From a phage: a DNA stretch of 64,000 nt. Positions 42,390 through 42,483 of the stretch are shown piece by piece (position 1 is the first letter of the stretch; each line of letters opens with the position of its first letter). The position numbers and the translations under genes were made by a program. The notes beneath the pieces were generated by a model. The model saw only the letters and a list, made by a program, of their open reading frames with translations. It was not told the DNA's origin and did no database searches. The DNA is taken from the sequence record PZ386975.1; one strand, 5' to 3'.

Positions 42390-42483
42390 AGCCTGATAAA
42401 AGTCTGTAAATTGTCAATCAACGGGGGGGGGGGGGGTAACAACCTCCCACTACATAAAACCCTTAAACTAGGAGATTCAAAAA
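42390..42483 (+). promoter_or_regulatory. type B-variant cassette containing a 14-nt poly-G tract (42423-42436)
   Basis: TAGACA, 17 nt, TAAATT, then GGGGGGGGGGGGGG...CCTCCC in place of the usual GGGGAGG stem. Confidence 0.5.

Follow-up and report, generated by a model that had tools for sequence, protein, structure and literature searches.

A length-variable poly-G tract in a promoter-leader cassette of a Felixounavirus genome

The stretch of phage DNA analysed here (sequence record PZ386975.1, 64,000 nt; hereafter the window) contains exactly 14 consecutive G residues at positions 42423–42436, in the sequence ...tcaatcaacGGGGGGGGGGGGGGtaacaacctccc... (= ...gtaaattgtcaatcaacGGGGGGGGGGGGGGtaacaacctcccactacataaaacccttaaactaggagattcaaaaaATGgct...), shortly upstream of an open reading frame (ORF) for a 113-aa protein. 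This tract (G14) raises two questions, namely whether it is a genuine feature of the phage genome, and whether changes in its length could switch the expression of the gene that follows. The window is the genome of a Felixounavirus, a Felix O1-like myovirus and coliphage, with a GC content of about 39%; the best GenBank phages are 92–94% identical to it over large stretches, and none is identical. At a G fraction of 0.205, about 1.2e-5 runs of 14 G are expected from composition, and no other run of G or C of 6 nt or more occurs in the 64-kb window. The count of 14, the rarity of such homopolymers and the presence of the downstream ORF are all as an earlier note on this DNA had described them.

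An uninterrupted mononucleotide run of this length exceeds the approximately 8 nt taken as long enough for frequent slippage. The tract is a known kind of element, a hypermutable homopolymer, found in an unusual place, the leader of a phage early promoter. The reading favoured here, with somewhat more confidence than doubt, is that it represents a real, slippage-prone tract, which is tolerated and does not act as an ON/OFF switch.

Tract length among related phages

The cassette containing the tract belongs to type B, one of two types of repeated cassettes in the window. In an alignment of seven cassettes, G14 takes the place of the GGGGAGG(G) 5′ hairpin arm present in the type B siblings at 40346, 41210 and 43024, in agreement with the position assigned to it in the earlier note. 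The 125-nt cassette matched 210 GenBank phage records, of which only JLBYU28 (96.0%) and Salmonella phage GLBO_sp7 (92.1%) exceeded 90% identity. The window allele reads CAAC-G14-TAACAA-CCTCCC, the allele of JLBYU28 CAAC-G12-TAACAA-CCTCCC and that of GLBO_sp7 CAAC-GGGGAGG-TAACAA-CCTCCC. The commonest form among phages is CAAC-GGGGAGGG-AATGA-CCTTCCCC.

Further alleles were found through contigs encoding exactly the 113-aa protein of the window. Eight more assemblies carry a pure G run together with the same TAACAA loop and CCTCCC 3′ arm: G5 in SRR33537024, G7 in SRR30282385 and G6 in six contigs (ERZ27237988, ERZ27238906, ERR10033205, SRR8354004, SRR8091018, and ERZ28652348). All pure-G alleles (G5, G6, G7, G12, and G14) share the identical 113-aa protein, and TAACAA is a haplotype marker common to all of them and to GLBO_sp7. 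When about 45 orthologous loci from IMG/VR and metagenomes were surveyed, about 35 had an interrupted arm, and outside the TAACAA/CCTCCC haplotype the arms were interrupted without exception. Interrupted arms are present in more than 200 GenBank relatives, and long alleles in two genomes only. No further Felixounavirus allele of the TAACAA haplotype was recovered by IMG/VR scans with ATCAAC+G9, AATCAAC+G7, G7+TAACAACCTCCCAC and G5+TAACAACCTCCCAC, nor by pattern scans of metagenome contigs and GTDB genomes; the sole genome match of the latter, a Bacteroidales metagenome-assembled genome, was discarded as a chance match.

A neighbor-joining tree of the 661-bp locus, calculated after masking the tract, unites the pure-G haplotypes in one clade with two subclades, {window G14, G5, G6, G6} and {G7, four G6, JLBYU28 G12}. 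The window is sister to the G5 contig, with 0.2% divergence in these 661 bp and 13 mismatches in 2.85 kb (99.2% identity). JLBYU28 shows a mean identity of 93.8% to the window genome-wide, with three differences within 100 bp of the tract. Since G12 belongs to one subclade and G14 to the other, with G5–G7 alleles around each of them, the two long alleles appear from this tree to be independent expansions from a G5–7 background, and at least four length changes are implied across the ten haplotypes. The polymorphism of tract length goes beyond the divergence of the flanking sequence, which among pure-G haplotypes is 0–3% over 661 bp.

The interrupted arms behave differently. The haplotype GGGGAGG-CGATAA-CCTCCCC, used as a control, is identical in 7 of 7 contigs, and the GGGGAGGG-AATGA-CCTTCCCC arm stays constant among phages diverging by about 10%. 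Where the window and its nearest relatives differ by indels, almost every one is a gain or loss of a single nucleotide in a G/C run of a cassette hairpin. Because the pure-G alleles form a series while the interrupted alleles keep a fixed length, these comparisons indicate that the tract is genuine and unstable, with its exact count being uncertain. The comparison of tract length between isolates, which the earlier note had proposed as a check, thus reveals lengths from 5 to 14 G on closely related haplotypes, and the supposed proneness to length change is supported.

Other length-variable runs were encountered in the course of these searches. The ATCAAC+G9 scan returned about 15 unrelated viral contigs (IMG/VR L004, L007, L008, L010, L012, L016, L019, L021, L023, L025, L028, L030, L032, L035, and L036) sharing CAGCA[TC]ATCAAC-G(9-14)-nTTGTT[CT]GT, with the G run ranging from 9 to 14, which suggests a conserved poly-G of variable length within a gene of some other phage group. 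In the Felixounavirus contigs L101 and L110 (IMGVR_UViG_3300045988_010904 and _004123), a type B cassette located before a different gene (ATGGAAAACG...) carries a pure G7 arm (CAAC-GGGGGGG-TAACCTG-CCCC). In L124 (~12283–12340) and L066 (~332–390) (IMGVR_UViG_3300045988_024527), the 3′ arm of type B is C9, in the arrangement GGGGAGG-CGATAACA-CCCCCCCCC; this arm of another Felixounavirus contig is the mirror image of the G expansion.

Position of the tract and predicted folds of the leader

Upstream of the tract a consensus scan calls the promoter TAGACA-17-TAAATT with 9 of 12 matches, corresponding to TTGACA-17-TAAATT in the siblings. ORF21 of Felix O1, the orthologue of the downstream gene, is reported to reach its maximal expression at 5 min after infection (PMC3185647), and the cassette therefore has the properties of a sigma-70-like early promoter. 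No transcription start site map or transcriptome of a Felixounavirus was found in the literature, and the start was placed by sigma-70 promoter geometry just ahead of the tract (Table 1). Between the last base of the -10 hexamer (42412) and the first G of the tract (42423) there is a gap of 10 nt, and on this geometry the tract lies in the transcribed leader, outside the -35/-10 spacer. Because it is 10 nt downstream of the -10 hexamer, changes in its length cannot shift the -35/-10 spacing. The earlier description of the tract as being inside a promoter cassette is thus correct for the promoter-leader cassette as a whole, but not for the promoter proper. A mechanically called ORF at 42411–42512 (TTG start, 33 aa), in which the tract would be read as Gly codons, was rejected, since it has no ribosome-binding site and the length changes among relatives are not multiples of 3.

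For a promoter to be phase-variable, the repeat has to occupy the -35/-10 spacer, an activator site or the ORF; the G14 tract begins 10 nt beyond the -10 hexamer and lies outside any credible ORF. Phase variation is caused by poly-G/C between -35 and -10 of Neisseria porA and opc, and by poly-C at the Bordetella fim promoters. The locus studied here resembles them in having a long G/C homopolymer next to a promoter, with length polymorphism between isolates presumably arising via slipped-strand mispairing. However, their tracts are located in the spacer or in an activator-binding region and change promoter geometry, whereas here the tract follows the -10 hexamer.

The GGGGAGG leader, the likely ancestral form, is predicted to fold into a hairpin of 7 bp that begins 4 nt from the inferred 5′ end (-12.9 kcal/mol, z = -3.3), and sibling cassettes fold alike, with GGGGAGG...CCTCCCC hairpins of -12 to -13 kcal/mol and z-scores of -2.2 to -3.3. 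In the predicted folds of pure-G leaders the hairpin is present at every tract length, with free energies of -8.4 kcal/mol for G5, -12.1 for G6, -15.8 for G12 and -16.8 for G14. It is kept in every register because any six G pair with CCUCCC via one G·U wobble. In these folds the surplus G residues pair with the downstream ACCCUU, and 86–100% of the sampled structures (89% for G14) have a 5′ tail of at most 4 nt. The leader of the window haplotype (42449–42500) also contains ACTACAT where others have ACTAAAT. In the predicted folds this C permits weak UACAU/AUGUA pairing with codons 3–5, enclosing the ribosome-binding site, which may be due to chance.

A hairpin near the 5′ end protects Escherichia coli mRNAs from 5′-end-dependent attack by RNase E, according to the account given in PMC3997798 (Emory, Bouvet and Belasco, 1992; Bouvet and Belasco, 1992). 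The predicted stable hairpin about 3–4 nt from the inferred 5′ end would make the leader similar to the 5′ untranslated regions of ompA and papA, from which the poly-G variant differs by its degenerate pairing register. Another parallel is offered by the pyrG leader of Bacillus subtilis, where RNA polymerase slippage at low CTP reportedly adds G residues and prevents formation of the terminator. As in pyrG, a 5′ poly-G leader pairs with a downstream pyrimidine-rich segment, but here the G residues are genome-encoded and a terminator is not involved.

The origin of the tract could be explained as follows. The ancestral arm was likely GGGGAGG, still present in GLBO_sp7. Without its one interrupting A, which was most simply removed by a deletion, the ancestral sequence would have become the modal G6, and the resulting pure G run would then have been shortened or lengthened by polymerase slippage to give G5, G6, G7, G12, and G14. 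Because the tract is located between the transcription start and the ribosome-binding site, its length would be free of the constraints of promoter spacing and reading frame. The 5′-terminal hairpin would protect the mRNA, as ompA-type 5′ stem-loops do, and the tract would most likely be hypermutable but nearly neutral, with at most a graded effect on transcript yield or stability. What the analysis shows is the tract itself, its position relative to the promoter consensus, the allelic series with its distribution in the tree, and a hairpin kept in the predicted folds; the slippage mechanism, the near-neutrality, the transcription start and the role of the hairpin are what we infer.

The earlier note had also supposed that slippage could switch expression of the gene at 42484–42825. 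The position of the tract outside the spacer and the retention of the hairpin at all lengths weaken this idea, as does read-through transcription. The terminator scan found no + strand terminator between the upstream promoters and this gene, and the gene should therefore also receive read-through transcription from the upstream cassettes. Switching is thus mechanistically unlikely, and at most a graded effect is plausible.

Several observations weigh against a tolerated and nearly neutral tract with a protective hairpin. No compensatory base changes in the hairpin were found among 43 distinct type B leaders; the arms of these leaders show a conserved sequence in which mainly the run lengths vary, which is neutral as to covariation. 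The G14 leader has a 5′ tail of 11 nt in its centroid fold, which may weaken the protective geometry in part of the ensemble. G-rich runs in the non-template strand impede transcription in vitro, so that some effect on expression is conceivable. The distribution of tract lengths is bimodal (5–7 vs. 12–14), and this bimodality, together with the two independent long alleles, could point to selection favouring long tracts instead of neutral drift.

Alternative explanations

The alternative that survives best, although we regard it as unlikely, is that the tract is an expression tuner or contingency locus, where slippage in the leader alters the output of the 113-aa immediate-early gene and generates expression variants in the population. 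Such an effect could be exerted through promoter escape or blockage of transcription, through the influence of hairpin register and 5′ tail on the access of RNase E or RppH, or through a G-quadruplex formed at 15 or more G. The hypermutability evident from the allelic series, the two independent expansions to 12–14 G in phages that are 93.8% identical overall and the location of the tract in a regulatory cassette directly upstream of an early gene are all consistent with this idea, but the tract lies outside both the -35/-10 spacer and the ORF, and the gene should be supplied with transcripts by upstream read-through regardless of its length. The predicted folds can be read both ways, since the hairpin is retained at all lengths, while the G14 ensemble is register-degenerate (the frequency of the minimum free energy structure is 0.11) and its centroid has the long tail mentioned above.

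The ViennaRNA G-quadruplex model predicts a two-tier G-quadruplex for G12–G14 (-24.6 to -28.8 kcal/mol, the latter value for G14) and a three-tier one for G15 (-41.1 kcal/mol). An intramolecular three-tier G-quadruplex takes at least four runs of 3 G with loops of 1 nt or more between them, and in a homopolymer at least 15 nt, so that G14 is one slip below the modelled threshold. In a more specific form of the same proposal, which seems to us quite improbable, the tract would be a phage contingency locus in which slippage across a threshold shifts the expression of an immediate-early ORFan heritably and reversibly between virions. This threshold could be a three-tier RNA G-quadruplex at 15 or more G, or blockage of the host RNA polymerase on the G-rich non-template strand. 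Against any such role for the long tract stands its scarcity, with long alleles in two genomes vs. more than 200 interrupted GenBank relatives and eight metagenome or Sequence Read Archive contigs with G5–G7.

A precedent is provided by Campylobacter phages, whose poly-G tracts are reported to be associated with a phenotype (Sorensen et al., 2021, Cell Rep 35:109214, cited in PMC10877375). Both cases concern a length-variable poly-G in a virulent phage, but the Campylobacter phage tracts lie within genes, among them those for receptor binding, whose reading frames they switch, whereas the tract described here is non-coding, the sole one in its genome, and found in a coliphage.

An assembly or sequencing artefact, in which a true run of about G5–G7 was inflated in the assembly, is very improbable. 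It is true that the nearest relatives (97–99% identical locally) carry G5 or G6, and that long homopolymers are error-prone on every platform, which makes the count of 14 uncertain. However, a run of G12 occupies this site in the independent genome JLBYU28, whose local haplotype is different. The tract is the sole G/C run of 7 nt or more in both genomes, which argues against a general inflation of homopolymers. Other indels relative to relatives are single-base changes in intergenic G/C runs, the compared genes are without frameshifts, and the conserved flanks on either side of the tract remain in register. Poly-G artefacts of two-colour sequencing occur at the ends of reads or contigs and do not resume in register between conserved flanks, and long-read platforms tend to shorten rather than lengthen long homopolymers. 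We know of no sequencing platform that would make G14 out of a run of about G6 and leave all other homopolymers unchanged. The assembly error that the earlier note had put forward as an alternative is thus unlikely in view of the G12 allele and the intact homopolymers elsewhere.

There is even less to recommend a role at the level of DNA, in which the G/C-rich inverted repeat would serve as a site of recombination or replication pausing and the expansion would be a by-product or an enhancer of this activity; we consider it highly improbable. The cassettes do flank gene insertions and replacements. At the tract locus, an additional gene (gene 23, 82 aa) is found in phage wV8 (EU877232, 11745–12142) and in the O157 typing phages; it sits between a type B cassette and a type A one, ahead of the orthologue of the 113-aa gene (the compared stretch of the window is 42387–42483), and this placement is the pattern expected of cassette-mediated gene insertion. 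Moreover, the stems of PeSL (promoter-early stem-loop) elements of T4-like phages, typically GGGG...CCCC, mediate recombination (PMC2839356). Nothing, however, ties the length of the tract to recombination, and the G12 and G14 haplotypes keep the gene order of their G5–G7 relatives.

Finally, an overlapping second promoter consisting of TTGTCA (42411–42416) as -35 and TAACAA (42437–42442) as -10, with the tract as a spacer of 20 nt at G14, 18 at G12 and 17 at G11 in a classical phase-variable design, is hardly credible, since TTGTCA matches the -35 consensus in 5 of 6 positions at a distance from TAACAA that is optimal at G11, but TAACAA matches TATAAT in only 3 of 6 positions and is without the essential final T, the arrangement was not called by the consensus scan, an all-G spacer is atypical, and the 12-nt spacer given by the common (modal) G6 allele means that it cannot be ancestral.

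The cassette family and its significance

The tract is part of a block of small + strand genes at about 38–44 kb of the window, with a repeated cassette before each gene. At least 11 cassettes, at least five of them of type B, are clustered there among ORFans, and CCTTAAACTAGGAG is exact in seven cassettes (0.46 expected by chance). Type B cassettes consist of TTGACA-17-TAAATT, a stretch of about 10 nt with ATCAAC at its end, a GGGGAGG(G)-loop-CCT(T)CCCC hairpin and a conserved leader with AGGAG 9 nt before ATG. In type A cassettes, the promoter form TTTACA-17-TA..(G/A)T is combined with a GGGGCTTA...TAAGCCCC hairpin across the -10 region. Besides the promoter at the tract, the consensus scan calls type B copies at 40274, 41139 and 43550 and six type A promoters.

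Table 1. Features of the poly-G cassette, its siblings and the adjacent genes in the window
Feature	Position	Strand	Remarks
Upstream small gene, 77 aa, phrog_4640 (unknown function)	42153..42386	+	TAG stop overlaps the -35 hexamer
-35-like hexamer TAGACA (TTGACA in siblings)	42384..42389	+	Called by consensus scan; kept in orthologues
-10-like hexamer TAAATT	42407..42412	+	Invariant among type B cassettes
Transcription start (inferred), C-A-A	42419..42421	+	7–9 nt after the -10 hexamer; sigma-70 promoter geometry
G14 homopolymer, expanded 5′ arm of leader hairpin	42423..42436	+	About +4 to +17 of the transcript
Hairpin loop region TAACAA	42437..42442	+	Predicted fold: U and A close the stem, AACA tetraloop
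3′ arm CCTCCC	42443..42448	+	Pairs with any six G of the tract via one G·U wobble
Conserved leader ACTACATAAAACCCTTAAACTAGGAGATTCAAAAA	42449..42483	+	Shine-Dalgarno AGGAG at 42470–42474, 9 nt before ATG
Downstream gene, 113 aa, phrog_4318 (unknown function)	42484..42825	+	Orthologue of Felix O1 ORF21 (NP_944820.1)
Sibling type B cassette	40274..40359	+	TTGACA-17-TAAATT; hairpin GGGGAGGTAATAACCTTCCCC
Sibling type B cassette	41139..41223	+	Hairpin GGGGAGGGAATGACCTTCCC; C-run 1 nt different in a relative
Sibling type B cassette	42955..43037	+	TTGCAA-17-TAAATT; hairpin GGGAGGGATGACCTCCCC; upstream of gene 43045–43575
Sibling type B cassette, longer leader	43550..43654	+	TTGACG-17-TAAATT; GGGGAGGGAATGACCTTCCCC
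Type A cassettes	38121–38149, 38593–38621, 38972–39000, 39573–39601, 40646–40674, 41442–41470		Hairpin spans the spacer and -10
First convincing intrinsic terminator downstream	43942..43959	+	AGCCCC-TTAAAT-GGGGCT, then T-run; closes the multi-promoter block

Sequences of these cassettes were described in the Felix O1 genome as 57-bp and 39-bp direct repeats located between genes 15/16 and 19/20, and 18/19 and 20/21, and were left uninterpreted (PMC3185647). The type A sequence is the 57-bp direct repeat, and the terminator closing the block matches Felix O1 terminator t23 (PMC3185647). The repeats are not mentioned in the paper on wV8; in the wV8 genome, the type A hairpin carries a minus-strand terminator annotation. 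The type B hairpin has no U-tail after the stem and was not called by the terminator scan; its interpretation as an intrinsic terminator, following the minus-strand annotation in KhF1 and wV8, was set aside as unlikely, as there is no T-run on either strand.

The PeSL cassettes of the T4-like phages RB49 and phi1 consist of sigma-70 promoters and GGGG...CCCC stem-loops, are repeated among ORFans and bound gene insertions (Arbiol et al., 2010, PMC2839356; Comeau et al., 2014, PMC4122927). The Felixounavirus cassettes likewise combine an early promoter with an adjacent G/C-rich stem-loop, are clustered among small ORFans and are tied to gene insertion or replacement between close relatives, represented here by the extra gene of wV8. 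The analysis shows that the “direct repeats” of Felix O1 are a PeSL-like system of promoter-leader cassettes, and no paper describing them as such was found in the searchable literature. The likeness is an analogy between different phage families, with no sequence homology, and the Felixounavirus type B stem-loop differs in being located downstream of the promoter, in the transcribed leader, without a U-tail and followed by a conserved Shine-Dalgarno leader.

The 113-aa protein has no Pfam match and is assigned by PHROGs only to the family of unknown function phrog_4318. Its homologues, all of 113 aa and 70–95% identical, are restricted to Felixounavirus. A sequence search against PDB gave no match; the AlphaFold model, based on 25 sequences, is of low confidence (pLDDT 65.9), and a Foldseek search of PDB with it returned nothing below E = 0.68.

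A separate intergenic element at 42855–42900 of the window consists of TTGACA...TTGACAT followed by an ACCCC...GGGGG inverted repeat, with a G-run of G5 vs. G4 in the closest relative. The promoter annotated in AYO145A corresponds to this element (about 42860–42895 in window coordinates), away from the tract cassette. A cluster of 23 tRNA genes, usual for Felix O1-like phages, is located on the + strand at 55053–60305, and an Rfam search of the whole window at the gathering threshold revealed tRNAs only, the leader matching no family. In GenBank record GU169904 (labelled as Staphylococcus phage SA1; 147 kb), over 20 kb at about 111–134 kb are 91–94% identical to the window; the record is probably a mixed or chimeric assembly.

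If it is a tolerated slippage hotspot, the tract marks a site where Felixounavirus assemblies will disagree, and provides a fast-evolving marker for tracking close therapeutic or biocontrol phages. It is also a natural example of the stabilization of a repeat by one interrupting base, GGGGAGG being fixed in length in hundreds of genomes and the pure-G arm ranging from 5 to 14. If the tract were a contingency locus, a coliphage population would be hedging its bets at the level of early gene expression, with an ORFan possibly involved in host takeover or anti-defence. Should its length affect expression at all, this would be the first report from a coliphage of a hypermutable tract that is non-coding and located in a leader, and would extend the poly-G paradigm of Campylobacter phages to early gene regulation.

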